Assembly (NCBI GenBank): GCA_951406725.2
Contig: OX597814.1
Span: 87,420,001-87,484,000, forward strand
From: Octopus vulgaris
Lineage: Eukaryota
Direction: 5' to 3'
Length of the DNA stretch: 64,000 nt
Both the position numbers and the translations under genes were made by a program. The notes beneath the pieces are model-generated. The model had not been told where the DNA came from and did not search any database. It saw only the letters and a program-made list of their open reading frames with translations. How positions within the stretch are numbered: the stretch's first letter is position 1; each line of letters starts with the position of its first letter. Of the stretch, positions 298 through 56,856 are shown piece by piece.

Positions 298-423
298 AAA
301 ACCTACGTATATGTTTTGATTCATGCCCTTAGGTGATTCGTAATTCTAAACATTTGGGCAGGGCCATATGCTAAGAATTGGACATCATTTTAACTAAATA
401 GGGCAGAATCTCATCAGGGCTTT
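298..423 (-). ncRNA. Type-I hammerhead-ribozyme-like motif with long stem II (G12 mutated)
   Basis: Minus strand: AAAGCC-CTGATGA-GATTCTGCCC...GGGCATGAATC-AAAAC-ATATAC-GT-A-GGTTTT. Stem I is 6 bp (one G-U); stem II pairs GATTC/GAATC and TGCCC/GGGCA; GAAA has become AAAA at a CpG. Confidence 0.65.
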
Positions 424-864
424 ATGAGCTTATACTACAAATGTTAACATATTTCTTAAAAGGATGCAGACAAATTACTAACAAGTTTAAGAAGTTAAAT
501 CATATATATTATGCGTATGTATTTAGCTAGCGAATTATAGATGTAAAGATAAAATAACATACAAATAAAGTTAAAGTAAGAAGATATAAGATAAAAAATA
601 AAGAAAAATATAAATGTATGTAAAATATATAGTATATGAATTTAGATAAGAAAAAAGAAAAGTGCTTAAATATGCAAGGGAAGAATTATATGATAAAATA
701 AATGAAAGATAAGTTAAATAGTAAAAAATTATCAGTCGACCGTTAAAGATGAATTATTTTCATTGGTTTGGTAATAGATATAGTTTAGGAAATCTATGGA
801 TGTGTAGCGTTCACATCGTATTGTGTCGAATTTAAAATGAAGTATAGACAAAAGTTTGAAAAAG

Positions 865-1240
865 TAGTGGTAAGTAGCTTACTTACCAACGACTTGGCTC
901 CGAGTTCAATCCCACTGCGTGACACCTTGGGCAAGTGTCTTCTACTATAGCCTCGGGCCGACCAAAGCCTTGTGAATGGATTTGGTAGGCGGAAACTGAA
1001 AGAAGCCCGTCGTACATATATATATTTGTGTGTCTGTGTTTGCCCCCCCCCCCTACGTCGCTTGACAACCGATGCTGGTGTGTTTACGTCCTCGTCACTT
1101 AGCGGTTCGGCAAGAGAGACCAATAGAATAAGTACTAGGTTTACAAAGAATAAGTCCTGGGATCGATTTGCTCGACTAAAGGCGGCGCTCCAGCATGGCC
1201 GCAGTCAAATGACTGAAACAAATAAAAGAATAAAAGAAAA
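865..1240 (+). mobile_element. tRNA-derived SINE (family A, octopus-type)
   Basis: GTGGTAAG A-box, GAGTTCAATCCC B-box, core CCTTGGGCAAGTGTC, tail CCAGCATGGCCGCAGTCAAATGACTGAAACA; many copies in the window. Confidence 0.85.
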
Positions 1241-2078
1241 AAGGATATATATATATATATACTCACACTCAAACATATTTATTTAATTTATTTTCATTTA
1301 TTTATCATCAGAAAGGTTAACTTGTTAGAGTTGTGTTATTGGAAGTTTAATATCTAGAATTTATCGCTTAAGAGGTTAAATAAAAGAAAAGCTAAAAGGG
1401 GGCGAAGAGAAAAGGAATAAAATATAATGAAATAAAATGTAGTAGAATATATGGGAGCATATATCGGGTATTTGTTATAATGTCGCATAATGTTTGTAAT
1501 TATTAACTAAATAAATAAGTAAATTGGAGATCAATTCATTATAGATAGGAATATCGTTTAGTGTTGTGTGGTCATCCATTCTAGTAGTAGTTTCCTCTGT
1601 ACCAAGGTTAGGAATAACGAAGGAGTCATTCTTAAACTTCACAATGATTTAATTATAGCTAAGAACAGATACGAGTTCACCAAGAATATGTTTCGTGTGT
1701 AGCTGCTCATAAATGTGAAAAGTTGCATTCAAAATTTTGCCTAGTCGCGTTCTGAGTGAAAGAAATGCAATAGAAAGTGTACGAAGGAAATTAGTACCGC
1801 AAATGGTTCATTAGCAGCGCAAGAGAAATCTGTACGCATGTCGTGTAACATAAAGGGCTTGAATCGCACGGATGCTGCTAGAGACCATTTTCTTAGCTTA
1901 GTCCACGTGTAGACGAGTATAGTTGCTCTCCATAAAAAGGATGTCGACAGGTTGGATTCGGCGTAGCGAAAAGAGAAAAAACGGATCTCTCTGTCCCATA
2001 TATAGACTGAAAGGCTGCTGGCTTCCTTTAGTGAACAAAACCCTTCTATAATGTTCAATTACTAAAAGGGACATTCTT

Positions 2079-2098
2079 GGAACATTCTAGAATGTTCC
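2079..2098. promoter_or_regulatory. Perfect heat-shock element (4 inverted nGAAn units)
   Basis: GGAACATTCTAGAATGTTCC is a perfect 20-bp palindrome matching nGAAnnTTCnnGAAnnTTCn; function untested. Confidence 0.45.
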
Positions 2099-2394
2099 CC
2101 AAGGGAGATCACTTGTGTTCTTCTGGAGAACCGTAAATAGAACAATGACAGAATCTGTTTCAATTTACGTCACGCCTAGAAGCGTATTACGTTATATGAA
2201 GAAAAACGCAGTATTTGTATTTATGATCGAATTTTTGCTAAGGTAGAACAATTTAGTAGCTAAACCAAGTATTGATATTTAAATAGAATTTAGCAAATAT
2301 GAATTATGATTTAATTTACTCTGACTGAGTCCTACTGGTAGAAGCAGCAAGTCTTGTTTTTCTCCCAATTGACGACTTCCGTTTTGGTGTTATG

Positions 2395-3258
2395 ATCTGA
2401 CACGAATAAAATAATAAATGAGTAACATAAAAAATATTTTGTTACATTTTAATTATACATCGTAGTATGATACATAATAGGAAAATTTACCAGAATTACT
2501 TCATTCGTGACATGACCAGACACGAATAAAATAATAAATCGGTAATATAAAATAAAATTTGGAGTTACATTTTAATTAACGTGTAATATAATGTATGTCA
2601 ATCACTGTTTTATACATCGTAGTATGATACATAGTAGGAAAAGTTACCAGAGCAAAAATCCTAAGTGTTGACTGTAGACACGCTCCTTCGCAAATGATCA
2701 GCTATTGTTTTGTAAACAATGTTTCGAAACTGTTCGTGTGTTCGAAAGGGGAGATCTGACTCTTACACTCAGTGTAAGAGGCCCAGGTTGCCAAAGTTAC
2801 TTCATTCGACAATATTACTCAATACAAAGAGAAGGAGTTGGATGGGATGTGGCGGGGGCAGGGGGAGGAAGAGGAGGTCGGACTGATCTCTGCGGGAGAA
2901 GGTAGGTCTCTCTATTCCTCTTACAAAACTTACTTCCGGGAACCAAATTTGCCTCAATTGATGGGAGTGTGGTGGTGGAACAGGAACAGAGGCAGGGGCA
3001 GAAGGAGGTCAAGCATGTCCCTTTAGGAGAGTATAGGCCATCCTATTTCTGCCAAAGTTATTTCCGGGTGCCAAAGTTACCTTAATTGATGGAATGTCTC
3101 TGAAATAGGGAGTGGGGGAGGGACTAAACCTGTATATAAACCACGCTAGAGCTCCCACCCCCAAACACCCCTACAAAGTTTCATGCCGATCGGCCCAACC
3201 GTTTGGCCGTGATGTGAGTACAGACGGACAAACGGTCATTACGCCCATTATAGTATGA
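2395..3258 (-). mobile_element. Non-autonomous Helitron-like element with internal ~120-bp direct repeats
   Basis: Minus-strand 5' end A|TCATACTATAAT...GTTTGTCCGTCTG...GGCCAAACGGTTGGGCCGATCGGCATGAAACTTTG (Lep1/DINE-like). Duplicated GACACGAATAAAATAATAAAT blocks at ~2399 and ~2519. The 3' boundary is uncertain. Confidence 0.5.
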
Positions 3259-3459
3259 TATATTATTTTACATACATACATACTGACAGACCGACAGACA
3301 GATAGACAGGCAGACAGACATATACGTGAGTGTGTGTCCGCGTGCGTGTGTGTGTGTGTGTAACATTTTTATTAAAACATGTATTGTTAAAACCCGACAT
3401 TGTTCAAGTTTCCTTTTTGCAAGTGTTTTTTCTTTTTTTCTTTTTTTTTTTCATTTAGA

Positions 3460-3637
3460 GACGCAGGAGTGGCTGTGTGGTAAGTAGCTTGCTTACCAAC
3501 CACATGGTTCCGGGTTCAGTCCCACTACGTGGCATCTTGGGCAAGCGTTTTCTACTATAGCCTCGGGCCGAATAAAGCCTTGTGAGTAGATTTGGTAGAC
3601 GGAAACTGGAAGAAGTCCGTCGTATATATATACATAC

Positions 3638-3725
<88 letters not shown>

Positions 3726-3870
3726 GTGTGTTTACCGGTTCGGCAAAAGAGACCGATAGAATAAGTACTAAGTACTAGGCTTAGAAAGAATAAGTCCTGG
3801 GTCGATTTGCTCGAGTAAAGGCGGAGCTCCAGCATGGCCGCAGTCAAATGACTGAAACAAGTAAAAGAAT
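3460..3870 (+). mobile_element. SINE family A with internal (TG)n
   Basis: GGAGTGGCTGTGTGGTAAG...GGTTCAGTCCC head and the same tail as 865-1240. Confidence 0.88.
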
Positions 3871-4109
3871 ATGCTTTATACTTCCTTACTGTTTGTTTGG
3901 AACATTGATTTTCCTTCGATCATCCTTTTTACAACTTGATGGTTTTATCTTAGATGAAGTAGTTATCGTTGGTGTATGTTACCGCTGTTTTCTTGCGCGT
4001 AGAAACCTTGACCGTCATTCGCCGAAGTTTATTAATTTATTTTTTGTTGCACTAGAATGTTGACTCAAGGTTTTATTCAACAATCAGAATCTAATAATTT
4101 TGTGTGTGC

Positions 4110-4181
<72 letters not shown>

Positions 4182-4376
4182 GTGTGCGTGTGTGTGGTTA
4201 TTTATTTCTAGGACAGCTGTGGGAAAATAATGTTATGATCAAGCACATTCTAGCCGTGATCATCTAGTCTTTACAGGCATATTTTATTCCAGACAACATT
4301 CCCCAACACAATTTGTGAGGGATATAGCTGATACTTCTAGCTGGTCGAGTTACGACGTAGATGCTCTCTCCCTGTC

Positions 4377-4411
<35 letters not shown>

Positions 4412-4844
4412 TTCGTTGACTCAATGTGATTTTTGAATCTAGGGTGTGTTGTGCCTTTATGATTAGTTAGTTGTTTATAAAAAGAAACACATTTTCATGA
4501 TTTTAATTCTCATGTTTTCCTTACAACTCGATCCAGTAGTAAATAATTTAGAGAGTGATTTGTCTGCCAATATGATTTTCTCTTGGCAGCTGTATGAAAA
4601 CAAGTTCTACAGTTGAATTCCAATAATGAATTCGGGCTATTTAGAATATAAATATGCATGCACACATTAGAGCAAATCTGTCTATGAGCTTTTCTGGTGC
4701 TTTTACGAGTGTAGATGATGTAAATGTATGTTAAATTTTATTGGCTTATGGAATTGGTTTCAGGGTTAATGTTAATTCCGCTGTATATATGCCGTTGCAC
4801 ATGTATATATGTAATGCATATTCACAGGTGTTACATTCTCTTTG

Positions 4845-4937
<93 letters not shown>

Positions 4938-5190
4938 ATGAGCATGCGTATATACTTTCAGAAAATATTCTATATTTTTTTAAAAACAAAATAAGTATGT
5001 CGATATTTTTTCTCTTTACCAATTTTGACTTTCAATTTCATATAAGAGCGAAGAGCCAAAATAAGCACACAGTCTAGTAGACTTAAGTCTGCTGATTGTG
5101 TATCTCCGCCTTTCTGTGTTGGTATCAAATAGCATTTTATTCTACATATTCCCGACTTTGCGTTTGCTTCTTTCGCTAGCTCTTTTCCGC

Positions 5191-5245
<55 letters not shown>

Positions 5246-8113: not shown

Positions 8114-8168
<55 letters not shown>

Positions 8169-9809: not shown

Positions 9810-9851
<42 letters not shown>

Positions 9852-9855
<4 letters not shown>

Positions 9856-10165: not shown

Positions 10166-10456
10166 GACTATGCCATTTTAATTCCGAGCAACGCCGGGTA
10201 TTTCTGATAGTCTTAAAATAAAAGGAGTACGAGTAATAATAACATAATATTGTTTATTTTGTGTTTAGACAATAGAATAAGCGTACATAAGAATATTGGA
10301 GAGAAAAGGAAGGCACCGATGTTAGTGAAAAGACGTTCGTAAACAGGAAAAGTATGTGGGAGAGGTGAGGGTGTATGTATGCATGTTTGTATATGTGTAT
10401 GCCTGTATACTCGTGTGTGTATGCGTATATCTGTGTTTTGTGCGTGTGTGTGTGTG

Positions 10457-10490
<34 letters not shown>

Positions 10491-16578: not shown

Positions 16579-19500
16579 CCCCTTACCCAACAATTATTTT
16601 GAAAATAATTGTATTTTTTCAGACATATTTTTTAATTGTTTTATTTTACTATGTTTTAAATGGTGATTTCGAGGTATATTTCAAACCTTATTTATTATGA
16701 ATTTTAATTCAATAATATTGATTTTAAATTACCGCTTTGGGCAGAAACGAGTTAACCCGTTTTTTTTCATAAATCATATTACTTTTACAAAAAATCATGT
16801 TATTTTATTTGGTTATCGACATGGTGGGGTTATAATATAAAGGTATAAAAAAAACAAAGTGAATACTTCTATTCATAAAATGTGCCTTCCAACCCTTCGA
16901 CTGTCTCCAGGTGACTAAATCATACTCGGTCTTCAATGCCTTACTCAAGCGAAAGGTGATTTCTTTATTAAGATTATATAATCTTATACATAGAATTACA
17001 AATACATAACAAACATGCAAAACAAGTAATTAAGAGGTTCGCTATTTAAAAATTTTTTTTTTTTTATAACATTTGTATTAAAAATTCGTTTTTAAATTGT
17101 CCTTTATATAACCAGTAGCATCTTATCACAGTTCAAACCCCGGCAATTTACAAGCCCCGCAGCTTTTATTTCCTCTCCTCCCTCCATAGTTAAGCTGGGT
17201 TTCTAACACCCACCTTTCTTTCCACTTCCTTCCATCTTTTCTCATACACGCCCCGTGGTAAGCTCCTCTTCTCCAGCTCCATTTTGCTCTTCAGATGATA
17301 TCTGAAGTAAGTGAGCAAGCCGGGGCCGGAGACAAAGGTTCCTATCGCGGCTCCTTCCATTCTCGTTCTCCACATGCATTCTTTTACTACTGCAACCGTA
17401 CAGTGAAAACATGCCTCACCTTCCTTCGAGAGTCCAGTTGGCGGTATCATCTTAATCATAGACTCAGCCGACAGCTGTACTCGTCCTAGATGCGATAACA
17501 CGTGTTCTGCGTAACTTATCAAGTCTGACAACTTCCGACAGTGTACAAAGGCGTGTTGAACGGTTTCATCGTCCAACTCGCACCTTGGACACGTCGGTGG
17601 CACTGGAATTCCGTGCCGCGATAACTTCTCGCGAACAGGTAGAGCGTTCCTATAACACTGCCAGGCCAGGGATCTTTGGAAATTATCCAAGTACCCCGTC
17701 CTGAAAGTCTTTTAAACAGGTTGGTAAGCTGGTCTTCGTCAAACCCCAGAGCCCCTCCTAGGACGTCGTCGTTTTTCGCCTCTACCAGCCTTCTATAAAA
17801 TACCGAGGTGGTATTTCCGCAGCCGGCCTTGCCCGCCTTGTGGATCAGCGTGAGTGCCTGTCGGCACTCCCTTTGCCACAAAGTCAGTTTCCATCTTTTG
17901 ATGCGACCGGGTTTAAAATCCGTTAAGGAGGCCAGTCTCGGGAAAATTTCCCTGCCAGCGGACTCCACACCTTATCACCCTCCAGGTGGTGCCAGAGATG
18001 CTTCAGCCTCAACGCATGTCTGCGCATCATCAGCCAAGGCATTCCTAACCCACCCTTTAACGGTTCCTGGCAGCAAACGGAGCGCCTCACAAGTGGCTTT
18101 CCTCCCTTCCACAAAAAGCGGAAAAGGATTCGCTCCAACTTGTTAAGCCATGGACCGGGGCAAGGGACAACGGTCAGGCGGTAAGTGATTACAGATGCAA
18201 TGAACATCTGCACCACCTCCGCCCTTCCTTTCAAGGACAGAGACCATCCGGACCAGATCCGTACTATGGCCTCCACCTTGCTCGCCACCTCACTCCAGTT
18301 CCTCTCCGTTTGGGAGTCTGGCCCAAACCAGACTCCTAGCAACTTAACAGGGCCATCCGTCCAGTGTCCCACGACGCTGGACGATATCGACTTGCTCCTC
18401 CAGGTGCCGAGGCGCAAGCCAACCGACTTGTCCTTGTTAACCTTTGCTCCTGCCACCGCCTCGTATCCTCTGATAGCCTCTTCCACACAAGGTAGCTGGG
18501 CCTCATTGGACACGATGAGGGTGACGTCGTCCGCGTAAGCAGTAACCGACCTCCCACCTCCGATCTCATCCGAGTTGCTTCCCAGCCTCTCCAACTTTCG
18601 CAGCAATGGCTCAAGAGCCAACACGTACAAAAGTGGTGACAAGGGGCACCCTTGACGAACTGAACATTCAATCGAAAACGGTTCCGTTAGGTAACCGTTT
18701 ATCTGGACGGTGGACTTGATGCCGCTATACATAGCGGAGATCCACCCGCGAAATTCAGGGCCCAGTCCAGCCGCTTCGAGGACCGTCGCCAGGTACTCAT
18801 GGTCTACCCTATCGAAGGCTTTACTTTGGTCTAAATGGACCATTACCCCTCCCTTACCGGTTAATTTACCCACCCTGTCTAAGGTGTAGCGTATAAGGTG
18901 AAGATTGTCCTGGATCGACCTGCCTGGAATTGCACATGTCTGTGCTCTCCCTACAAGTTTCTCCACGACAACCGTCAACCTTTTTGCCAGCACCTTGGCC
19001 AAAATCTTTAACTCTACATTGAGTAGAGTTATGGGCCTGTAGTTACTAATGTTATCCCCCTTGCTCGGGTCTTTCTGGATTAGCGTCACCACTCCCCGGC
19101 TTACAGAGCTGGGAATTCTCCCATTCTGCTGCCAGTTCGTGTAGACGCCTGCCAATATTCCCCCGAACAAGTCCGGCATACTTTGGTAAAACTCGTAGGG
19201 CAGACCATCCAACCCCGGCGACTTCTCCCCGGCGCATCCGGCCAGTATCTCCTCTATCTCCGCGGGAGTGATCGCTCCTTCACAGCACTCCACCTCACGC
19301 CCCGAGAGCCGCGGTCCGCCGGCCAGGAAGTCCTTTAAGGTCCTTCCCCTCTCCGGCGCCGCACCACCCCCGAACACGCGGGCGAAATGCTGGTGAAGAA
19401 ACTTTTGCATCTCCTCCTGTCCATAGATCTTTTGTCCCTGTTCGTCAGTTAAAGATTTGATTGAGGCTCTGTTGCCTCTCTGACTCTCCACACGACGGGC

Positions 19501-19738
19501 CCATCCGGCCACGTTAATACCTTCTCGTTACTCAAGCGAAAGGTGGCAGAAATCGTCACTGCCAGACGTATAAAGTGAGCGAATATACTCGTATATGTCA
19601 AAAAAGAGTTTATAATAGACAAAGGAACTCGTTTGCTGTCGATTTTGGCGAGTCTATCTTTTGACGAGTTAACTCGCCAGAGATAGAAAAAAACGATTTC
19701 GGTCAAAACGCATATATTCGTTTCTGCCGGGTAAGGGG
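16579..19738. mobile_element. piggyBac-type MITE interrupted by a LINE
   Basis: TTAA|CCCCTTACCC at 16575-16588 and GGGTAAGGGG|TTAA at 19729-19742; sub-terminal ACGAGTTAAC motifs near both ends. Confidence 0.8.
16959..19527 (-). mobile_element. Tx1/L1-clade LINE, 5'-truncated, with 18-bp TSD
   Basis: RT ORF 17923-19512 (KSPGLDGLP, NYRPITLLN, DQSKAFDRV, RQGCPLSP, YADD), frameshifted C-terminus with CPRC..ETVQHAFVHC, and AATAAA at the 3' end. TSD TTACTCAAGCGAAAGGTG at 16941-16958 and 19528-19545. Confidence 0.93.
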
Positions 19739-23454: not shown

Positions 23455-23965
23455 ATTATTATTGTATCCAAAAATTCAACGCTACTTTTTGAAAAACTGG
23501 ATGTAAATTTTATGTTGGATTTAAAGCCATAGTTTTTAGCATAACAGTCACAGAAATACAAGAAGTCAGTTAAACTATCTTGAGATCCTTCCCAGACAAA
23601 AAAAGATGTCATCAATGAACCGTAACCAGAGTATTGGTTCATGACCATGTAGGGATTTGAATGTCTTCAGTAACTCTGTCTCGAATTTCGTCATGAAGAC
23701 ATTAGCGAAATTAACTGCCATGGGGGTACCCATGGGGCAATCCCTTGTCTGGTGGTAAAATTTTTGTCCAAACTTCATTGTATTACTTTGTAACACAAAC
23801 CTCAATAACCTACGGAGAAAAATTTGATGGAATACTTTTGTTTGACCGTTTTTCGAAGGCATTCAGACATGCTTCTATCTCTTCATCGTGGTCAATATTG
23901 GGCAATAAGGAAGAAACATCCATGGTTACCAAAAACCAGTTTTCGACATGGCTTCGGTGCTTAAA
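23455..23965 (-). pseudogene. Penelope-like element reverse transcriptase fragment
   Basis: FLVTMDVSSLLPNIDHDE, FYHQTRDCPMGTPMAVNFANVFM, LWLRFIDDIFF, IKFT...SVEFLD; frameshifted. Confidence 0.85.
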
Positions 23966-24924: not shown

Positions 24925-26741
24925 GTTTCTTTATTAGCCACACAGGGCTGCACACAGATAGAACAAATTACAAGGTAGAGCTTTTCTTTTGAAGGTTTAA
25001 AAGAAAGAAAAAAAAAAAAAAAAAAAAGGAAGGGGGAGTTTCGATCAAAAGGGATCGTAAAAGGAGAGAAAGAGGACAAAAAAAGGGGGTTTAAAAAAAA
25101 GGGGGGGGGAAATTGATCAATAGGGATCGTTATCACAGAAATGTCAATATGAAGTGTAAAGGGGAGGACAGGTGAGGTTTACCCGTGCAAAGAAAAGCCT
25201 ACGGAAAAGACCACGGTAACCTCGGTCAATGATGTCACATTTTATATTTCTTTTTTTTTTTTTTTTGCAAATAAGCAACTCTCTGTTTTCGATTTCTGGG
25301 TTCATAGGACTATGCTCAAGGTGGCTTCGTCATTCATACGTGCCATTCTTGCTACATTCATCCATCTTTTTTAAAACATTCGCTAGACAAAACTTGCCTC
25401 TCTACTCTCACTTTCCTTTTCAAGTGGTACTTGAAGAAGTTGATGAGAGATTGACCAGAGAGGAAAGTGTTTGTCTCCAATCCTTTCAGACGCGTCCACC
25501 AGATACATTCTTTCGCCATAGCCACAAGGATGATGAAAATAGCTCTTCCTTCCCGTTTGAAGGAAGGAGGCGTGACAATATTGACGATAGACTCAGCTGA
25601 TAAACCGACTCGTCCCACACGTGACAGCAGTTGTTCGACATAAGCCCACAGGTCGGAAATTGTTGGACACTGAACGAGTGCGTGCAGAACGGTTTCGTCG
25701 CTCTGACCGCATCTCGGGCAGGTCGGCCCCGTGTTTCTCGAGCCGTGTCTGTAGAGCTTATCCCGAACGGGTAGCGCTTCTCGGTAGCACTGCCAGGCCA
25801 GGGATCTCTGGAAGTTGTCCATGGGCCCTGGCCCGAAAGTCGTCCTGAACAGGCGGGTCAGGTACTCCTCGTCGACGTCCAGGTTCGCCCCGAGCTCGTC
25901 GTCGTACCTCCCCTCCACTAAACCCCTATAGAATGCTTTGGTTGTGTTGAAGTCACTTAAGGTCGACCCAGGACGGCAGAGTTGCTTGAGAGCAACGCGA
26001 CACTCGCGGTGCCATTCGCCCTTCCTCGGCCTCTTTTTGATCCACGACTGCAGTTCGGTCATGGAGACGAGCTGCGGGAAAGCGTGCCTCACAAACGGCG
26101 ACCACACCTGTTCACCGTCGTCTACATAGAGCCAGAGATGCCGCAGTCTCAGCGCGTGTCTGCGCATCATCAACCACGGCATGCCCAGCCCTCCTTTTAA
26201 CGGGTGTTGACAGCAAATGGATCGCCTGACCATCGGGACGCATCCTTTCCACAAGAAGCGAAAGAGGATGCGTTGTAGTTTGGTGATGGTAGGGTCGGGA
26301 CAAGGTACGACGGTCAGGCGGTAGTAGATGACGGACGCGATGTACGTGTTCGCCACCTCCGCTCGACCTTTTAGGGACAGTTTCCTCTCGGCCCATTGCC
26401 GGGCGAGAGTGACCACCCTACTCGTTATCTCGTTCCAGTTCTTCTCCACTTGGAGGTCCGGACCAAACCAGACCCCGAGCAACTCAACCGGGCCGTCGGT
26501 CCAGCGTCCCACGACGGAGGCGCTGGTGGACGGCATGGGCTTGCTTCTCCAGGTGCCTAGTCGCAAGCCCACTGACTTTTCCCGGTTGATTTTCGCTCCT
26601 GTCACCGCTTCGTAGTTTTTCAGTGTCTCGCCGACCAGCTCGATGTGCTCGTGGCTAGACACTATGACGGTGACGTCGTCCGCGTATGCAGACACGCTCG
26701 TCCCGCATCCCAATTCTCGCGGGATGCCCCTTAGAGTCGCC
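24925..26741 (-). mobile_element. Tx1/L1-clade LINE 3' half embedded in a (GATA)n array
   Basis: Open from SAYADD through GGLGMPWL and CPRC..ETVLHALVQC to ~25358; 3' UTR with AATAAAG; (AGAT)n on both sides (24787-24922 and 26742-26853). Confidence 0.92.
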
Positions 26742-26760
26742 AGATAGATAGATAGATAGG

Positions 26761-26855
<95 letters not shown>

Positions 26856-27082
26856 GCAGCATTTGTTTTTGGAATTTCCATATTTTCAACGGCTTTATCA
26901 TATATCGTCCAAAACGAAAAGTTTTCCAGCATTTTCTCTTATGATGATATGAAAACTGTTTCATGCCGCTTTGCCTCTCACTTCAACTATACTTACTCTG
27001 CTTAACGAATTTCATTTCTCTCTTTTTCTTTCTTTCAACTCAGTGTGATACACACCACAGGTACGTACGTACGTATTAGCAT

Positions 27083-36073: not shown

Positions 36074-37967
36074 TATGGAGAGAGTCATAGCCCAATTAAT
36101 TAAGGAGAGAGTTAGTCTAGATGAGATGCAGTTTGGTTTTGTACCAGGTAGAAACACCACTGATGCTATATCTCTGGCTTTTGTTGACTTGGAGAAAGCT
36201 TTGACAGAGTCCCCCAATCCCTTATCTGGTGATCAATGTGAAAACTAGGGATAGACAAGTGGTTGGTGAGAGCTGTACAAGCCTTGTACAAGAACACTAC
36301 CAGTAACATAATGGTGGGCAACGAATACAGCAAAGAACTCAGGATACAAGTAGGGGTTCACCAAGGATCGGTGCTCAGCCCCCTCTTGTTCATCATAATC
36401 TTCCAGGCAATAACAGAGGAATTCAAGACAGGCTGCCCATGGGAGCTCCTCTCTGCCGATGATCTTGCTCATATAGCTGAATCACTATCTGAACTAGAGG
36501 AGAAGCTTCAGGGATGGAAGCAAAATCTAGAATCAAAGGGCCTTAGAGTTAACCTAGCAAAAACCAAAGTCATAAGTAGGAAGGCAAAGAAATTACAAAT
36601 CTCTTCCGGTAGATGGCCCTGCTCAATCTGTAGAAAAGGTGTAGGTAGAAACTCCATGAGATGCACCCAGTGTAAGCTTTGGACACATAAAATATGCAGC
36701 AACATCAGAGGAAGATTAACAAGGAAACTATCTTTTGTATGTGGAAGGTACACAAGTACAATAAATGCTGAAAATGCACAGCAAATAGCCACTGTCAACT
36801 GCCAGGGGGGCAAGCTAGAGGTAGCAGATAACTTCCGTTATCTAGATGACCAAGTTGGTAGTGGAGGTGGATGCTTCAAGAGCATAGCTGTAAGAATAAG
36901 ATTAGGCTGGGCAAAGTTCAAAGAGCTCCTATCCCTGCTGACAATAAAGGGCCTCTCTCTCAGAGTGAAAGACAGATTATTTGAAGCCTGTGTGCAAAAA
37001 GCTATGATGCATGGTAGTGAAACATGGGTTATGGCAGCTAAGGACATGTGTAGACTTGAAAGAAATGAAACCAGAATGCTTTGCTGGATATGCAATGTCA
37101 GTGGTGCATGTTCAACAGAGTGTAAGCATCTTGAGAGAAAAGTTAGACATAAGAGGAATCAGATGTGTGCAAGAGAGAGGACTGCCCTGATATGGTCATG
37201 TGATGTGTATGGACGAGGACAGTGGTGTAAAGAAGGGCCAATCTCTAACTGTGGAAGGAATTTGTGGTAGAGGTAGACCCAGGAAGACATGGGACGAGGT
37301 GGTGAAGCACAATCTTCAAACTTTGAGCCTCACAGAGGCAATGACTGGTGACTGAGCTTTGGCGATGTGTTGTGCTTGAGAGGACCCATCAAGCCAAGTG
37401 TACCTGTGCTGGTGGCATGTAAAGAACATCTTTTGAACGTTGGGCCTCACAGAGGCAAAGTGGCTGAGTTCCTTTCAAGCATTGGACCTCACAGAAGCAA
37501 AGTGGCTGAGTCCCTCTCGAGTGTTGGGCCTGACAGAGGCAAAGTAGCTGAGTTCCTCTCAAGCATCTTTCGAGTGTTTGGCCTCATGGAGGAAAGGTGG
37601 CTGAGCTCCTTTCAAGCATTGGGTCTCACAGAGGCAATGACCAAGACCTTTGGCACTGAGTTGTGCTTGAGAAGAAGACCCATCAAGCTGAGCAAAATTG
37701 GAGTTGTGGTAGATACCGGTGTCATGCAAATTGGCACCTGTGCTGGTGTCATGTAAACACACCTTGGTGTCATGCAAATGGTATCCTTGCCAGTGGCATG
37801 TAAAAGCACCCATTACATTCTTGGAGTGGTTTGCATTAGGAAGAGCATCCAGCTGTAGAAAACCATGCCAAATCAGACTGGAGTCTAGTGCAGCCTTCCT
37901 GTGTGCCAACCCAGTGAAACTATCCAACTCACCAGCATGGACAACGGATGTTAAATGATGATGATGA
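36071..37967 (+). mobile_element. RTE-clade LINE, 5'-truncated, with a PHD-like Cys/His finger
   Basis: QFGFVPGR, AFVDLEKA, GVHQGSVLSPLLF, ADDL, WPCSICRKGVGRNSMRCTQCKLWTHKIC, HGSETW; 42-bp tandem array in the 3' UTR; ends in a (GAT)n tail. Confidence 0.9.
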
Positions 37968-42569: not shown

Positions 42570-42651
<82 letters not shown>

Positions 42652-42962
42652 TTATATATAATACCGTGCATGCATATTTACATACATAATTTCAAGAGAG
42701 TTAGAGGTTGTGAATCCAACCAGCTAAGAGATAATATCTATATCCAATATACTGCTGGTAGAAAACCCTAATACACAAGTGTTTTTTCATTGCATGGCAA
42801 TTACACTACTGAATGTAATAAATGGGTGAGAGTAAGAAGTTTTTTCACCCTTAATTTATACAGCAATAAGAAAATGGAGGGGATCAAGAGGTGGTGTGCC
42901 AACAGAGAGCTTATGAAGTATTTTGCCTGGATTGATAACCTCTCACTAATAGCTCTGTTATG

Positions 42963-43022
<60 letters not shown>

Positions 43023-43224
43023 TAACAAAATGGAGGGGATCAAGAGGTGGTATTCATCAACTTTTAGGCATTATATTATGTCTGTTTATTTATTTTTAAA
43101 AAAATACTTATAACTGTATAACAATATACATACATGTATAACATATTATGCTTTACATATATAACATATAAAAATACCAGTAATTATTAAAATATATAAC
43201 ATAGAGCATGGAAAGTAGGGTAGT

Positions 43225-43348
43225 CTCTCACAGCTGTTTCACCAAAGAGGACATAGTACCTCACTCTACTTCCATCCCTTCACTGAACTGAAGTATTTGG
43301 TAGATAAGATTAAGGTTTTTGGATGTGCCTCTGGGCTTTGTCAGAGAG
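43225..43348 (-). ncRNA. Degenerate hammerhead-like motif with long stem II
   Basis: Minus strand: CTCT-CTGACAA-A-GCCCAGAGG...CCTCTTTGGT-GAAAC-AGCT-GT-G-AGAG. Palindromic stem III ACAGCTGT; G8 and the cleavage triplet are mutated. Confidence 0.55.
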
Positions 43349-43679
43349 TTTAGAAAGTTCATAAGGTTAAGTTATAAATATAAATACATACATATATACA
43401 CACTTTTACATATACATACATATACACATATCACATGTTTATATGAATATATATATATGTTTGTGTATAATTATTATAATTATATAAAAAGAAAAATATG
43501 AACTACAGCAATAATCCTCCCTTCTCAACATATGTAATATGTATGTACCTATGGGTATGTTTATACGTAAATATATATATATATGTGTGTGTGTGTATGT
43601 GTATGTATATATATATGTATATATGTATATATATATATATATATATATGTGTGATATGTGTGTGTGTATATGTGTATTT

Positions 43680-46005: not shown

Positions 46006-48510
46006 TACACATGGGTTGGGCAAAATAATGGAAACAGCTTGTTAAATAGAAGTTTTATTAGTTAATACAAAGTTGATCCACTTTTGGCATCAATCGCAGC
46101 TTTAATATATTGAGGAACTGACTAGTACAGGTTCTGAATACCTGTTAATGGAATTTTGGGCCATTTTTCAATAGTGGAAGGATGTAGATCCTCACTCACT
46201 GCTAAAAAATGCACAACTGTTCATTTATATTGAGATCCAGTGACTGTGGGATTCAATCTAAGTTGTCGTTTTCACTTTTCTGCTCTTTGTACCAATTGTG
46301 AATGACATTAGCCAAATGTCATCAGAGAAGATGACATTGCTCCTTTGAACCACTCACCACTTCTGTTAGTCTAGACCAGTGCTCCAGAAACAGTATGCTG
46401 CAGCACACTTGTGTGGTATGAGACAATGCTAAATGTGCTGCAGTATAACCTGAATATAATTTTTTTCCCTATACTTTTAATTATATTTTTAGTTCATGTG
46501 TGCCACCAAATTTTGAAAAGAATATAAATGTACCGCAAGTGAAAAAAGGTTGTGGAGTACAAGTCCAGACAGCACTTTTTTTTTCACTTAGCAGTGTTTA
46601 TGGGGGACAGGAAAGGCTTAGCAATTTCAGTCCTCATATGGTATTCAGTTTTATGGAGGTCATAACAAATAGTTTAGTTTCCATTACCATAGTTTCCATT
46701 GCTTCTCAAACGTGGCAGGCACTTCCTTTTACACCAGCTTTCTATTTTCTTCCAGTACTGTCTCAACAATGGTGCTACTCCGGAGCAGTGGAAAACTGCC
46801 AGTGTCATTCCTCTGTTCAAAAAGGGTGACCGCACATCACCTGTCAACTATCGCCCAGTCAGTCTCACTAGCTGTATTGCAAAACTGATGGAATCGTGTG
46901 TCAGAGAAACACTCTGGAACTTCTGGAGCTCTCACAGTCTCATCCGACCCTCACAATATGGATTTGTCCCTAACTCCAGCTGCAGTGACCAGCTTGTCGA
47001 GTTCCTTGAGGACATTACTCAGATCACTGACAGTGGCTCATGGGTGGATGTTGTCTACCTTGACTTTGCTAAGGCTTTCAACTCTGTGCCACACAAAAGG
47101 CTTATGGTGAAACTCTCTGCAATGGGTGTGGGGGATGACCTTTTTAACTGGTTGAAATCCTTCATCCTCAGCCGAAAGGAGGTAGTCACAGTTCTAGGAC
47201 AGCACTCTACACCATATGAGATGTCATCGGGTGTACCACAGGGATCTGTCCTTGGTCCACTCCTGTTTGTGGCATACATTAATGACATAGATGCAAATTT
47301 AAAGAATGCCACAGTATTGAAATATGCAGACGACATCAAGCTGTACCTTGAAATCAAGAGGACTGATCCTGATGTCTACAACTCTTTCCTGCAATCAGAC
47401 CTAGACACAATGCAGCAATGGATCACAGACTGGCAACTGAAACTGGCTGTGGACAAGTGTACCACCATGCATTTTGGGAGAAAAAACCCTGCGTCCACAT
47501 ACTCCCTCCACAACACTGATATCAAGAAATCCTCTTGCGAGCGTGACCTAGGCATCACTGTCAGCAGTGATTTGCGTTGGACAAAGCATATCTCTAAAAT
47601 TGTCAAGAAGGCCGAGGGTGTCTTGGCATCACTCAGCAAGACTTTTGTTAGCCGCTCTCCAGCCATCTATTTAAAACTGTATACAGCTATGGTACGACCA
47701 CACTTGGAATTCGCATCATCAGTTTGGAATCCCTATCTTGCTCAGAACATTGACCTCCTGGAATCTGTCCAGAGACGTGCAACCAAACGCATACCCTCCA
47801 TCAGACACCTACCATATTCTGAGCGCCTTGTTTCCCTGAGCATGGATTCACTGAAGCTCCGGCGTCTGGCGACGGACTTAGTAAACACCCACAAGGTTAT
47901 CAACCACCTCACCAACAACAACACTGAACACCTTTTTGATCTCCATGTGTCTAACACACGTGGACATGCCTACAAAGTCAGAAAACAGCACAGCTCCCAT
48001 GACTTTCGGAAACATTTTTTCACGCTCAGGGTTGCTGAAGCGTAGAATAAACTGCCTGCGTCAGTTGTTGACTGCCATGACACTGCATCCTTTAAGGCCC
48101 TCATGCTTTCCGAAATCCGCCGAAACTACACCTGATTATATATACACTTTAGATGAGTTGTAGTGCACCTGAGCACTGTACACAATTATTATTATTATTA
48201 TTATTATTATTATTGTTATAATTTTAGCAAGGTGGTTGTTTAGCTCTGCTGCCATTTTTGTTGCTGTTCAATGATTGTAGACACAATACATCTCACCGTT
48301 CTTCAATCCCTCTTAGTGAGCTTTGCTTTCCACCCAGAATTAATCACACCAGAGCTTCTTTTATCTTGGTTTTGAAATACCAACATCATTTTAGAGACTG
48401 TACCTCTCAAAACATTAAATAATTCAAAAGTTTTAGTGACTGAAACTCCAGCCATCTGTACTCCAGCTATTTGTCCTCTATGGAAATCAGATAAGTCACG
48501 TATTTTAACT
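46006..48510 (-). pseudogene. Tc1-like relic interrupted by the CR1 LINE
   Basis: PQSLDLNI motif at ~46230-46250; DLSDFHRGQIAG at ~48465-48500; TACACATGGGTTGGGCAAAATAATGGAAACA terminus. Confidence 0.5.
46690..48213 (+). mobile_element. CR1-clade LINE, 5'-truncated, RT frame largely intact
   Basis: WKTASVIPLFKKG, NYRPVSLTS, YLDFAKAF, SGVPQGSVLGPLLF, YADD, ERDLG, TRGH..K; premature TAG at the conserved W of W-N-x-L-P; (ATT)n tail. Confidence 0.92.
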
Positions 48511-50021: not shown

Positions 50022-50052
<31 letters not shown>

Positions 50053-50478: not shown

Positions 50479-50495
50479 AATATATATATTCCTCA

Positions 50496-50539
<44 letters not shown>

Positions 50540-50544
50540 GTATA

Positions 50545-51424
50545 TATAATATAATATAATAAATGTGAAAACTAATTTTTGTATCAGTGTGTCACACTTA
50601 GACCCCCTCTCTCACTATTCAATGACACTCCTACTATTCCTCATGATGGGGTGAGAGTAATTGTAGGCATAGAGACAGTGAGGGCAGTGGCAAAGACAGA
50701 CGGAGAGAGAGAAAGAAAAAGAGAGGGAGAGAAAGAGGGACAGAGAAATTTAGGGAGAGTTGATGTTTTATTAAAAGTAGCAGTATTGATGGTGGCAGTG
50801 GGAATAATAATAAAAGAAAGAGAAAGAGTGGGTATGTGAGAGAAAGAGGAACTGAACACTAAACTAACATGCTAAACTAACACACTGAACAAACACACAC
50901 ATTTAGCCATTTTGTGATGGTAATGAGGTGGTAGTAATAGTATGAGCTGTAGTTGTGATAGAGGTGGAGGTGGTAGTGATAATGATGATGATGGTGGTTG
51001 TCAGGGATGATGGTGAGAGCAAGTGGTGTGAAAGACAGTGGTGATGATGGTGGAGGGGAAGGTGGCAAAGTAAAAGATAGTGGTGGTGGTGGCATCAGAA
51101 GTCTGAACAGTGTGTGTATGGCAGTTGTGATGGCGATGGTGAGGGTTGAAAATGATTAACAAAAAGAGAGAGGGAAAAAAAAAGAGGTTAGACAGAAAAA
51201 AAATTGTATATGACACCCGAATGGGAAGACAGAAAAATATCTTTCATGCAATAAGTTCCAAGTCAACAAATTATATCATTGTTTTGGTGAAATTTATTCA
51301 ATGCTTGAAAAATATTTAATATGTACTCAATGCATGAAGTGTCATTGTTGGGCCCAAGGCATAATGAAGAGCCCTCAACAGGAGCTAGCTTAAAAGCCAC
51401 CCGATAGGGCAGCGTTTAAGCTAG
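50545..51424 (+). mobile_element. Non-autonomous Helitron
   Basis: 3' hairpin GCCACCC-GATA-GGGCAGC (51396-51413) followed by CTAG|T (51421-51425); AT-rich ATAATAAATGTGAAA 5' region, start approximate. Confidence 0.6.
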
Positions 51425-51465
<41 letters not shown>

Positions 51466-51468
<3 letters not shown>

Positions 51469-51964
51469 ACTTATAAACAAGGGCAAAAGAAAAAAATTCC
51501 AATGCCAAATATGCCGAAAATAGACTTAATCGTCAATAACCATATAATTTATCTCTATAAGCACGCGTCTCGAAAGCAAGCTGACAGAAATTTCTAAAAA
51601 ATTTCGTTATTATCGAATCGGCCCCAATTTCTGAGTTAATTCATTTAGAATTTTCTCGTCATCAGCGATAAATACGATAAGAAAATAAATGAGATACTTA
51701 CTTGTACCCATGGAAGAAGTAAACACTAAGTCATGAGTACACTCAAGTACCCCAATTATATCCAAAATGGAAATTCTACAGCATACCTCGAGACACGTGT
51801 GATCGGACTGAAAATTCTCATAGAGTGAGAGAATCCGGAAGTGAATAGTATTAGATTTACATCTCATATAGGATAAAATTTTCGAAAAAATTTTTTCAAT
51901 GGCCAGCATATTAAAAAACAATACCTTTAAAGGTTAAATTTATTAACAACTTATAAACAAGGGC
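51466..51964 (-). mobile_element. ~480-bp unit bounded by 19-bp direct repeats, containing a degenerate hammerhead-like motif
   Basis: ACAACTTATAAACAAGGGC at 51466-51484 and 51946-51964. Minus strand: CTGATGA-C-GAGAAAATTCTAAA...TTTAGAAATTTCT...TTC-GAGAC-GC-GT. Confidence 0.5.
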
Positions 51965-52425
51965 ATATATGTATGTATGTATCTATGTATGTATGTATGT
52001 GTGTATATATATATATATATATGTATATAAATATAAGTATGCATGTGTGTGTGTATATATATATATATACACACAAGCATACATATATTTACTGATAGAG
52101 ATGATGACAATGGTGATGATGATGATAACAATTATAATGACGACAATGATGTTGTTAGTTCGTTAGTTCATTAGTTCATTATAGAAATAAAACAAGGGAG
52201 GATGTGGAAAAAAACAACCAAAACATAACAATCTATCCAAATTTACCCAGTAGTATTATTGTACATTGTACAATAAATGCTTACATAATGAAATCACATT
52301 ATTACTAAGTAACACATCAGGAAAAATCATTATATTGGATTAGAATTAAAAGCACTGACTTCTTCCTCTGAGTTCTTTGTTCTAAGTAGCCTGATCTTGT
52401 TCTTATGAATTTGTCAATTTCAAGA

Positions 52426-52459
<34 letters not shown>

Positions 52460-52481
52460 TTTATATTTTACACAAACATTA

Positions 52482-52516
<35 letters not shown>

Positions 52517-52665
52517 TGTTTTAAGAATTTTGCTTCTCATGCACATGCTTTCTGGGGTCAGTCTCACTGCATGGCAAGTGTCTTCTTTTCTAGCCCCAGG
52601 CCAGCCACAGCCTTGTGAGTCGATATGGTAAACAGAAACTGAAAGAAACCCACCATAAATATATA

Positions 52666-54233
52666 CGAGGTGGTATCAAAACGTTCCCAGACTAGTTCTG
52701 TAGCATACCAACAGATGACAGCACATGGTTGCATGTGCAGTGAGAGCTAGCAGTGGCCTTCATGAGGCAGTGTGCAAGTGACATCACTGTGTTTACTTCG
52801 CAAGTTGTGAAATTTGTGTTTTTGTGATAACGCATATGCTGTTGTCTGTGATTTTGTCATGGACAGGAAGGTGGAACAAAGAGCCAACGTGAAATTTGAC
52901 ACTAAACTTGGGAAGTCTGCTACAGAGAGTTGAGCATACTTCAGCAAGATTATGGCAACGAGGCAAGGGTTCATACACAATATTTTGAGTGGCATGTGTG
53001 CTTCAAAAGCAGAAGATAATGAGCGATCTAAAAGAGCATCACCCCAAGAAATGTGGACAAAATTCATCAGCTTGTGCATGAAGATTGTAGGAGGACAATC
53101 AACAACATTGCTAATGTTGGTCTGTTGTATGGATCTGTGCAGGTAATCCTAAAGTCTGAATTGAACATGCAGTGTGTCTCTGCCAAGTTTTTCCCTCATC
53201 TACTGACCACTGAACAGAAAGAACGTTGCATTTGTAGGATTTGGAGTTATCTATCTCTGTGTGATATCTGCACTTGTAGGGTGCTCACACATTTCCCTAC
53301 AATGTTGTAGAAAGGAATAAAATGGCAGGAACACGAATAGCTGAACAAATAACAATAATAGTTTATTATTTCACAGAAGGAGATACTTCATCGCTGGTCA
53401 TAGGTAGCATGAACGCCAGGGTTAGGAAAGCAGCAGAGTCAGATTAAATCACCATGGTTAAACAGTCTTCACCGCCCATGGAGTCTGATTCGCCCTTTGA
53501 GTCTGGTTTGCCCTTTGAGTCTGGTTCGCCCCTTCACTCGAAGCCTTGTCAAGACACGTCATAATTCCTTGACCGCCAAGAGCCAAGAGCCTTAGAATAG
53601 CGAGAAAGGCTAACCGCTCCTGATTACTGTGCATGCACATCAGGGGACTTCCGGCAGCCTACTAGAAAACACCAAACATTGCACAGGCACTGATGGACAT
53701 CCCAAAATGGTATCTAAAACATGGCGTCACTATACATTAAAGTCTGTCAAGATCGCCATCAGGGCACCACTGATGACCCATCCTTCATGTTTAGGATCAT
53801 CACCAGTGATGAGAATTTAGTCTATGCATATTACTCAGAGACAAAGCAGCCGTCATCACAATGGAAGAGCCCTTCATCTCTACAACCAAAGATGGCAAAA
53901 CAGAGCCACTCAAAAGCATGCTCATCATTTTTATCAACATCCATAATATTGTGCATTGAGAATTCGTCCCCCAGGGGCAGACTGTCAATCAAGAGTTCTA
54001 CTGTGATGTTTTGAAGCATTTGAGTGAGGACACTTGGTGAAAGTGGCTGGATTGGTGAAGCACAAAGAATTGGATTCATCATGGCAACATTACACCCTGT
54101 CACCAAGCTCTCCTAACTTGTGAGTTTCTCACCAAAAATAACATGGTATCACTTCCACACCCACCTTATTCACCAGATTTAGCACTTGTGGACTTCCATC
54201 TCTTCCTCAAGAGAACTTTTTGATACCACCTCA
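52666..54233 (+). pseudogene. Mariner transposon relic
   Basis: TIRs TA|CGAGGTGGTATCAAAA and TTTTGATACCACCTCA|TA; EQRANVKF, IITSDE, EFVPQGQTVN and HPPYSPDLA motifs; frameshifted. Confidence 0.9.
53233..53734. mobile_element. Probable solo LTR inserted in the mariner
   Basis: TGTAG...CTATA termini, 4-bp TSD CATT (53229-32 and 53735-38); the mariner frame resumes across it; 3x 18-bp internal tandem. Confidence 0.65.
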
Positions 54234-54248
54234 TATCTCTCTCTCTTG

Positions 54249-54286
<38 letters not shown>

Positions 54287-54477
54287 CTGTGTGTGTGTAT
54301 ATTCTTTTATTCTTTTATTTGTTTCAGTCATCTGACTGCAGCCATGCTGGAGCATCACCTTTAGTTGAAAAATTCAACCCCAGGACTTATTCATTGTAAG
54401 CCTAGTACTTAATCTATCCGTCTCTTTTGCTGAAGTACTAAGTTAGGGGGACATAAACACACCAACACCTGTTGGCA

Positions 54478-54549
<72 letters not shown>

Positions 54550-54552
<3 letters not shown>

Positions 54553-54998
54553 CATACATATAAAGCTGAAATTGTCTGTATGTGTGTGTGTGTGTATGTG
54601 TAGCACGTTTGGTAGCCTTCAACTAACATTATCTTCTCCGAGACCCTACGGCATAAGTTGACCAAAATTGAGAGTATGATAGAAGAAGGCTTGCTCTTCA
54701 TTTTGTAAATTTAAATCAGACCATATTAAGACCAAAAATTATTTACATCAAAAAGGTGCTATTTTTCTATGAAATTCCCTATTTCTTTATGATTTTTTGA
54801 CTGCTGTGTCACCATTTTTCAGTGTATTTCAACCAGAAAAATGTTCACTTAAAGAGAATAACAAGCTACATAATGCAAAATTTTTACTTTTCAAAAAAGA
54901 TTGAAACTATGTCAAAACTTTGTTAACGCGACATCAAAGTCTGACATTTTAAACAGAACTAAAGAACAAACCTTAGCAACGCCGGGCTCTACTGCTAG
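54550..54998 (+). mobile_element. Non-autonomous Helitron
   Basis: ATATAAAGCTGAAATTGTCTGTATGTGTG start; 3' GCAACGCCGGG...CTGCTAG|T. Confidence 0.65.
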
Positions 54999-55025
54999 TA
55001 TATATAAATAAAATCAAAATAAGCA

Positions 55026-55109
55026 ACAGTACAACCGTTTCAAGTGACTCCATTTAATTGAACAATACAATCATTACATCAATTTAAATGCAGGGCTATC
55101 ATCAGCTGC
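55026..55109 (-). ncRNA. Hammerhead-ribozyme-like motif with intact catalytic core
   Basis: Minus strand: GCAG-CTGATGA-TAG...CATTTAAATTGA...TCAATTAAATG...CTT-GAAAC-GGTT-GT-A-CTGT. Stem I is GCAG/CTGT and the cleavage triplet is GUA. Confidence 0.65.
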
Positions 55110-55427
55110 ATGAATAAATAAATAGAATTCTAATCAATCGGACACATTGATATAATTTTACTCAAATACTTTAACAGAGCACAAAGAGGGAAAAAAAATC
55201 CATTTTGTTGCTATTGTAGCAAAGAATATACTACACTTCCAAGAAATACATGAATCTTTACTGGAGTCATAGCTTGTAAAGGATTGTGGTTCATTTTTAA
55301 TTTATTAGTTTTTTTTGTTAACTATTAAATCTAAGACTAGAAGACTGTGTCTGTTCAGAACAAAGGGCAAGAGTGAGATGACAGCTCATGGCAAAGTATG
55401 GCCATAAATATTTTCAAGATTTTAGTA

Positions 55428-55750
55428 GTAGGAGTGGCTCTGTGGTAAGTGTCTTTTACTATAGCCTCAGGCCGACCAAAGCCTTCTGAGTGGAAACTGA
55501 AAGAAGCCCATCGTATATATGTATATATATATGTATGTGTGTGTATATGTTTGTGTCTGTGTTTGTCCCCCCAACATCACTTGACAACTGATGCTGGTGC
55601 ATTTATGTCCCCATAACTTAGTGGTTTGGCAAAAGACACCGATAAAATAAGTCCTAGGCTTACAAAGAATAAGTCCTGGGGTCGATTTGCTCAACTAAAG
55701 GTAGTGCTCCAGCATGGCCACAGTCAAATGACTGAAACAAGTAAAAGAGT
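55428..55750 (+). mobile_element. SINE family A with internal deletions
   Basis: Head, core and tail motifs present. Confidence 0.8.
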
Positions 55751-56518
55751 AGTAAATTGGGTATAAAGTATCTGTCTATAAAGGAGGCTGGGTAGGGGTA
55801 TGTGTGTGAATGTGTTTGTGCATGCATATATCATATATATTAGAGAGACAGACAGAAGACATTTAATTCATATATACCTACATACAAACATACGTACATA
55901 CATAAATATATGCATAAATACATGCATACATACATACATACATATATACATACATGCATATATACATGCATACATACATACATACATTCATACACACACA
56001 CACAAAAGGTTAATTGATTGTATTATTGACTGTATCTTTATCTCTGGTCAACATGATTGTGTTTGTGAATATCTGAGTTTGAACTTGTTATGTAATCTTG
56101 ATTGAGAAGACCTCCAATCAATAGTGATCCAGACATTCATCGACAACTTTGTTTCTTAACATTTTGATGGACGTGACTGGGTGATAGAAATTTGTTTCTG
56201 AACCATATTGTTGCAGATTCAGTCATGCAGCATAGCATTTTGGGTAAGTGTCTTCTGCTACCAAGGCCTTATTAGTGAATTTGGTAAATGGAACCTGAAA
56301 GAAGCCTGATATATATATATATATATATATATATCCATATATATGTATATAGATGTATATATATATCATATATATCATATAAGCACCATCCGCTCGTGTC
56401 CGTTGCCAGCCTCGCCTGGCCCCCGTGCTGGTGGCACGTAAAAGCACCATCCGTTCGTGGCTGTTTGCCAGCTCCGTCTGGCACCTGTTATTTATATTTT
56501 TATAATTGTACTTTATAA

Positions 56519-56642
56519 TCTTTGACGAGGCCTTGAGATATATATATAAGTACCTCATTTTTAACAGCATATTACCTCAATACATTTGACTAATATAGAC
56601 AGAATGAGATACTTTTATCTATTGGCTGAAACAGCTGTAAGG
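56519..56642 (+). ncRNA. Hammerhead-like motif with long stem II (C3 mutated)
   Basis: TCT-TTGACGA-GGCC..AGATA..AAGTACCTCATT...AATGAGATACTT..TATCT..GGCT-GAAAC-AGCT-GT-A-AGG. Confidence 0.6.
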
Positions 56643-56807
56643 ACCATTTTATGTGTATTATTCTTATGGCATTATTAATTTGCATATTGATGTACATTTT
56701 TTTGTTCGATTTGGATGTTCCTATTTATATAGTTAATAAATAATATGAAATGGTAATATCTATAAGTTGATGATTGAAATGAATTTGTTCCTCCATTTTT
56801 TATTTGT

Positions 56808-56856
<49 letters not shown>

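Follow-up and report, generated by a model that had tools for sequence, protein, structure and literature searches.

Long-domain-II hammerheads in putative truncated Penelope-like elements, and a retrozyme-like repeat, of Octopus vulgaris

What are the five hammerhead-like motifs scattered beside (TA)n tracts in a 64-kb stretch of the 2.8-Gb Octopus vulgaris genome (contig OX597814.1, positions 87,420,001 to 87,484,000; hereafter the window)? The five loci were read directly from the sequence, and the preliminary description took all of them as hammerhead ribozymes with an expanded stem II, carried by non-coding units of 300–500 bp and possibly mobilised by the Penelope-like element (PLE) that left a reverse transcriptase (RT) relic at 23.5 kb. 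Our analysis points to a reading to which we assign a probability of about 0.8. Loci 1, 4 and 5, and likely locus 2, would be 5'-truncated tails of Hydra-clade PLEs carrying a hammerhead with a long domain II, and locus 3 would be a separate 480-nt repeat with a short hammerhead, likely mobilised in trans by such an element. Hydra PLEs, PLE hammerheads and retrozymes have each been described already; new here are an intact element with two hammerheads, the breadth of the long-arm motif across families, and a corrected reading of locus 3.

Each locus belongs to a dispersed repeat family (F1 to F5 for loci 1 to 5, in that order), for which a first look at the same genome gave 163, 501, 2722, 1557 and 1501 candidates, respectively. 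Per family, 40 candidates were scored and 25–30 loci fetched (numbered with the prefix L), the fetched copies being those most like the window copies.

Long-arm hammerheads at loci 1, 2, 4 and 5

Four of the five motifs were found where they had first been placed and with the domain II lengths first given; locus 3, treated separately below, has a domain II of 27 nt. The four long-arm loci and their hammerheads are as follows, with extents set by alignment to family members.

192..863, minus strand: locus 1, putative 5'-truncated fragment of the 3' untranslated region (UTR) and pseudo-long terminal repeat (pLTR) of a Hydra-clade PLE, family F1, with collinear upstream endonuclease in some family loci
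298..423, minus strand: locus 1 hammerhead with 6-bp stem I, CUGAUGA at 417-411, 93-nt domain II, G12 changed to A in the window copy, and palindromic stem III
42649..43610, minus strand: locus 2, putative 5'-truncated 3' end, family F2, interrupted by (TA)n and homologous to F5 and young Hydra families
43225..43348, minus strand: locus 2 hammerhead with 97-nt domain II; the window copy has A for G8 and G for H17
55027..55431, minus strand: locus 4 (family F4), putative 3' end of a Hydra-clade PLE, truncated on its 5' side, with same-strand upstream endonuclease in some family loci
55026..55109, minus strand: locus 4 hammerhead with 57-nt domain II and intact core; the window copy has a 20-nt deletion directly 3' of stem I
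56489..56808, plus strand: locus 5 (family F5), putative 3' end of a Hydra-clade PLE, truncated on its 5' side; (TA)n follows at 56810-56856, and an open reading frame (ORF) is linked to the family in L225
56519..56642, plus strand: locus 5 hammerhead with 3-bp stem I, C3 changed to U in the window copy, 99-nt domain II at 56529-56627 and GAAAC at 56628-56632

The majority rows of F1, F2, F4 and F5 contained CUGANGA, GAAAC, GUA and self-complementary stem III segments, so that the core is intact at the level of the family consensus. The earlier call of type I hammerheads of the PLE kind, in which stem III is palindromic and domain II expanded, agrees with this. Both core halves were intact in 11/29, 17/24, 14/24 and 21/24 of the non-window copies of F1, F2, F4 and F5, respectively. 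Core mutations were present in three of the five window copies (loci 1, 2 and 5) rather than in four as first thought, the core of locus 3 being intact; the G12 change at locus 1 and the G8 change at locus 2 both fall at CpG sites of the majority row. Since the majority core of each family is intact, the changes in the window copies reflect copy-specific decay. Whole window copies folded only modestly better than shuffles (z −0.75 to −1.9).

The reported association with (TA)n also held in the genome. A (TA)5 tract was found at most 750 nt downstream in 25/30, 23/25, 23/25 and 24/25 loci of the four long-arm families, against 30% of random window stretches. Its position was clustered in F2, F4 and F5 and spread in F1, and the 5' ends were variable within each family.

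The possibility of chance matches was addressed with a strict descriptor that demanded an exact core, a palindromic stem III, at least 2 pairs in stem I and 3 in stem II, and a domain II of 40–200 nt. This was run on 369 fetched loci totalling 1.56 Mb, mostly chosen because they carry these repeats. It returned 82 distinct long-arm matches in 21 sequence clusters, and no match in any of ten dinucleotide shuffles made block by block from these loci. By our own reading, seven clusters came from the searched families and 14 were bystanders in the flanks; some of the 21 are visibly related and thus represent fewer lineages, but the claim that several lineages are present stands. Positions 3-4 of stem I, which lie outside the descriptor's minimum requirement, were Watson–Crick in 31/42 cells of the 21 cluster representatives, versus 14.0 ± 2.8 with re-dealt partners (0/2000), and positions 7-10 paired at background level. 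Domain II of the same representatives gave folding z values of −1.1 to −5.7 against shuffles. Compensatory changes within the arm, at 8/21 predicted pairs among 12 sequences of the clade that joins F2, F5 and the young family introduced below, show that the predicted arm pairing is kept between subfamilies. No pseudoknot signal was detected between the stem I flank and domain II (mean 4.05 bp versus 4.16 bp in shuffles, with 397/500 shuffles reaching the observed mean). As judged from sequence, the conserved core and three helices with covariation place these motifs, at family level, among the type I hammerheads.

The approximately 14 bystander clusters have arms of 44–82 nt; examples are L018 2389-2491 (−), L039 2607-2722 (−), L091 1900-2007 (−), L114 2536-2628 (+) and L174 949-1060 (−).

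An Rfam scan of the window at E <= 1 returned no hammerhead, its matches being mostly microsatellites that hit microRNA models, which accords with the expectation that a length-capped search misses these motifs. A window scan allowing one core mismatch and requiring a stem I of at least 4 bp recovered loci 1 and 4.

In the parts of the literature drawn on here, metazoan PLE hammerheads (Cervera and de la Pena 2014, PMC4209133) have the same short helix I, a self-complementary helix III that implies dimers, and mostly solo copies; those with a palindromic helix III are described as dimer-dependent and weakly cleaving. Their enlarged helix II measures 6–8 bp, unlike the multi-helix domain of up to 100 nt seen here. 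The Hydra hammerheads listed in File S2 of Craig et al. 2021 (PMC8557442) differ likewise, with a loop 2 of 3–10 nt against a domain II of 57–100 nt in our four families. The same file marks two spike-moss PLE-X motifs with loops of ~30 nt as deviating, and that paper notes 'half-core' hammerhead cases for Naiads. Natural hammerheads are known to have stems of variable length, some of them weak, and their stem II can begin with U-U, as it does in F4 (PMC3088659, as far as drawn on here). Our literature search found no report of long-arm Hydra hammerheads or of octopus retrozymes; supplements may hold such motifs.

Upstream coding sequence and an apparently complete element

Walking upstream of F5 reached a frame with RT and GIY-YIG endonuclease, and in L225 a broken ORF shares its strand with the 99-nt-arm hammerhead, ~3 kb away. 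A Hydra-type endonuclease lies upstream on the same strand, with collinear spacers, in 4/30 F1 loci, three of which also reach the hammerhead region, and on the same strand in 3/30 F4 loci. One bystander family (L061), the only one traced to a parent, likewise links a long-arm hammerhead to an upstream Hydra endonuclease. Given this linkage, loci 1, 4 and 5 are best explained as truncated ends of protein-coding elements of up to ~5.6 kb, not as non-coding lineages or units of 300–500 bp. The label of non-autonomous retrozyme thus falls away for these three loci and, by inference, for locus 2, and fits locus 3 only. The F2 hammerhead aligns with those of F5 and the young family, and the F2 3' tail is common to the young Hydra element; by this homology alone, locus 2 is inferred to belong to a Hydra-clade PLE.

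A search with the Hydra endonuclease gave 11,598 candidates, of which 150 were scored; many had an identical score, which suggests recent activity of a young element. The open frame of this young subfamily comprises 960 codons, 947 from the ATG, and its hammerhead, with an 85-nt arm, lies ~2.1 kb after the stop codon and ~450 nt before (TA)n. In two of the five young copies examined (L260 and L261), a hammerhead stands at both ends, ~5.6 kb apart, flanking the ORF in the order pLTR-ORF-pLTR; the first is ~600 nt before the start codon.

L261 4000-9750 (C5 near 142.94 Mb), minus strand; also L260: apparently complete young Hydra PLE, with a 947-codon ORF containing long Asn-rich inserts and a 3' UTR of ~2.5 kb

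The single ORF with RT and C-terminal GIY-YIG endonuclease is intact in L261 and broken upstream of F5, F1 and F4; the linker motif of the F4 parent in L329 has decayed. In the young ORF, we read by eye DKT, RWR in place of RWK, CxCX5C, CxxC and CxH, and saw no CCHH. The clade was called from these motifs, against section 11 of PMC8557442, and from a by-eye comparison with the Hydra-1_Obim protein. The elements resemble the Hydra-clade, C-terminal-endonuclease PLEs described there in having a single RT-endonuclease ORF with DKT, CxCX5C, CxxC and CxH, a type I hammerhead near the 3' end, (TA)n targets, and tandem and inverted truncated forms. Unlike the published elements, which are generally <3 kb in that account, the intact element measures ~5.6 kb and has a 3' UTR of ~2.5 kb. 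The short hammerhead and the length below 3 kb, neither of which is found here, are typical rather than defining traits of the Hydra clade.

The retrozyme-like repeat at locus 3

Locus 3 had been mis-paired. A long parse with a 97-nt arm was abandoned: in the family majority row it ends in GAGAC without GUH, and a short parse was preferred. The correct register was revealed by comparison with a sister family, F3b, which is 69% identical to F3, has 2,067 candidates and units of ~500 nt (L370-L399, e.g. L371 1543-1622, plus strand). A palindrome-only descriptor had missed the F3 hammerhead, and a scan allowing a hairpin stem III recovered it.

51467..51964, minus strand: locus 3, a single retrozyme-like, non-coding F3 unit of 480 nt that carries an 18-nt terminal repeat (51964-51947 / 51484-51467) and has (TA)n after it
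51610..51671, minus strand: locus 3 hammerhead of the canonical type I, its core intact; 51671-51666 pairs with 51615-51610 as stem I, CUGAUGA 51665-51659, 27-nt domain II, GAAA 51631-51628, H17 at 51616 and predicted cut after 51616

Both families follow one pattern, namely a stem I of 6 bp that continues beyond an internal loop, CUGANGA, a domain II of 25–28 nt, GAAA, a hairpin stem III and UH, which fits 23/25 F3 and 25/30 F3b loci. Among the 48 matched copies H17 is never G: F3 has U or C at this position, whereas F3b has A. All four letters occur at N7 of F3b. Between F3 and F3b, four of the six pairs in stem I differ on both sides, with 97.4% of cells paired (nine sequences in two related groups, hence four events).

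The F3 unit is ~480 nt long (476–517 nt where measured), has no ORF and has a recurrent 5' boundary. Its 3' ends run into microsatellite in 16 loci and continue head-to-tail in seven, with two unclear (n = 25); for F3b the corresponding numbers are nine, 19 and two (n = 30). Inverted upstream copies occur in 11/25 F3 and 6/30 F3b loci. These counts cover 55 of ~4,800 F3/F3b candidates, and several F3 loci on C9 and C29 have long flanks in common and are hence non-independent.

As a short non-coding unit with a canonical type I hammerhead, F3 looks like a retrozyme. In the parts of Cervera and de la Pena 2020 (PMC7229834) and Li et al. (bioRxiv 10.64898/2026.07.22.740005) drawn on here, metazoan non-LTR retrozymes are likewise non-coding and AT-rich, with a canonical type I hammerhead and an interrupted stem I, head-to-tail repeats and thousands of candidate copies. 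F3 departs from them in its length (~480–500 nt, known here from genomic copies, against circles of 170–400 nt), in occurring mostly as monomers or partial dimers rather than arrays, and in having (TA)n ends with PLE-type inverted copies.

An autonomous parent of F3 was sought in L076, where a Hydra endonuclease end continues into F3; this proved to be a one-off insertion, as among 30 loci with that endonuclease end only L076 did so. A motif resembling a 5' splice donor lies ~35 nt upstream of the F3 hammerhead (window ~51705-51695, minus strand) and is kept in F3b; PLE terminal repeats can contain introns. A third F3-like subfamily is suggested as well, enriched in presumed RNA runs (14 runs were taken as RNA by guess, and all runs examined were contigs, hence giving no reading of ends or strand).

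A proposed cycle and its alternatives

The structure of the young element suggests how the long-arm tails could arise. A read-through transcript would hold two hammerheads that pair through their self-complementary stem III, and the pair, which would probably need the help of a protein, would excise a unit-length RNA of ~5.6 kb. This RNA would then be copied from its 3' end into (TA)n by the RT and the GIY-YIG endonuclease, and early termination would leave short solo tails such as those in the window. Solo long-arm copies, having no partner, would cut little. Within each motif, the long domain II is predicted to fold back so that stem II still closes.

For locus 3, a head-to-tail transcript could be cut by a presumably monomer-competent hammerhead into a ~480-nt RNA, which may circularise. 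Reverse transcription of this RNA by a PLE enzyme would yield (TA)n ends, along with partial tandems and truncated copies in inverted orientation. All three genomic forms are seen for F3/F3b. In the two retrozyme papers cited above, as far as they are drawn on here, retrozymes are circular RNAs proposed to be mobilised by PLEs.

Several results weigh against this reading. Among 20 upstream stretches of 6 kb, F2 showed no collinear ORF; two Hydra matches were present, the first at a distance of 5 kb and the second on the other strand, and neither was collinear. Pfam at E <= 0.1 gave no match to the Hydra ORF. Stem I of the young intact family is only 2–3 bp. Contigs from two presumed RNA runs span the predicted cut site of this family, which shows that uncut molecules, whether RNA or DNA, are present. 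In the one Poseidon element assayed in vitro, according to the part of PMC11167929 drawn on here, cleavage needs protein and the hammerhead is dispensable for insertion. For the F3 families, two full hammerhead regions on one strand occurred in only 1/25 F3 and 0/30 F3b loci. Their head-to-tail joint occurred in three presumed RNA runs and also in one DNA-like run and is no proof of circles, and no sequence link to a particular autonomous element was found in the 55 loci.

Some of these results would fit long-arm motifs with little or no catalytic activity, retained in the terminal repeat solely as a structure for protein binding or processing. The very short stem I of the youngest family, the contigs running through the cut site, the dispensable hammerhead of Poseidon PAc (PMC11167929, same part) and the missing pseudoknot signal all speak for such motifs, which we nevertheless consider unlikely. 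The catalytic core is kept across 21 clusters whose stems are otherwise unlike, and N7 and H17 vary as catalysis allows, a pattern hard to explain without selection on an active fold.

F3 and F3b might instead be the short terminal repeats of an autonomous PLE not yet reached, rather than free-standing retrozymes. The head-to-tail continuation does resemble a pLTR, and 55 of the many candidates is a small sample, but the continuing 3' end enters the unit's own 5' start with a period of ~476–517 nt, and the units have a recurrent 5' boundary. The 55 loci contained no collinear ORF, and the Hydra matches near L061, L066, L076 and L394 were not common between loci. We regard terminal repeats as a quite improbable explanation of these families.

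The original proposal pointed to the RT relic as a possible mobiliser.

23578..23859, minus strand: RT relic of a different, non-Hydra PLE family, outside the system

The relic gave a weak match to RVT_1 and has 5,015 candidate relatives. In 5/20 fetched relatives (L173, L176, L178, L181 and L183), a U3-A8 minimal hammerhead with a 6-bp stem I and a 16-nt domain II lies ~1.4–1.5 kb downstream on the sense strand, and comparison of the relic with the Hydra ORF gave no significant similarity (E 0.35). By sequence, then, it is assigned to a different PLE family and was rejected as the mobiliser. That all five loci are non-autonomous, non-coding long-arm retrozyme lineages moved by the relic's family is thus very improbable: most genomic copies are indeed short and non-coding and stop at (TA)n, no ORF is linked to F2 in the 20 stretches searched, and F3 is non-coding, but F1, F4 and F5 continue upstream into Hydra endonuclease ORFs, the 5' ends vary as expected from truncation, locus 3 has a short arm, and the relic family has a short hammerhead of its own.

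Other features of the window are an uninterrupted 818-codon frame at 59714-62170 (+) with PMT, MIR and PMT_4TMC domains, which marks an intronless protein O-mannosyltransferase gene, and long RT-like frames of long interspersed nuclear element (LINE) type at 17190-19527 (−), 25358-26938 (−), 36242-37270 (+) and 46693-48045 (+).

On the preferred reading, of truncated Hydra-clade tails beside a separate retrozyme-like repeat, long-arm hammerheads are common in the sampled loci and are missed by Rfam in the window; descriptors with a length cap therefore probably undercount PLE hammerheads. Some of the Naiad 'half-core' cases, as noted in the part of PMC8557442 drawn on here, merit a second look with a wider spacer. 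More speculatively, and held only tentatively, the genome may contain both halves of the proposed retrozyme cycle, with the RT-endonuclease of an intact young Hydra PLE mobilising a high-copy 480-nt retrozyme into (TA)n, and the 45–100-nt arm may be kept as a functional module across many unlike PLE lineages, for example as a site where the element's protein docks in place of the loop I-loop II contact. Together, the intact 947-codon element and F3/F3b offer a concrete enzyme-template pair for PLE-retrozyme mobilisation, which the cited papers propose but do not demonstrate.

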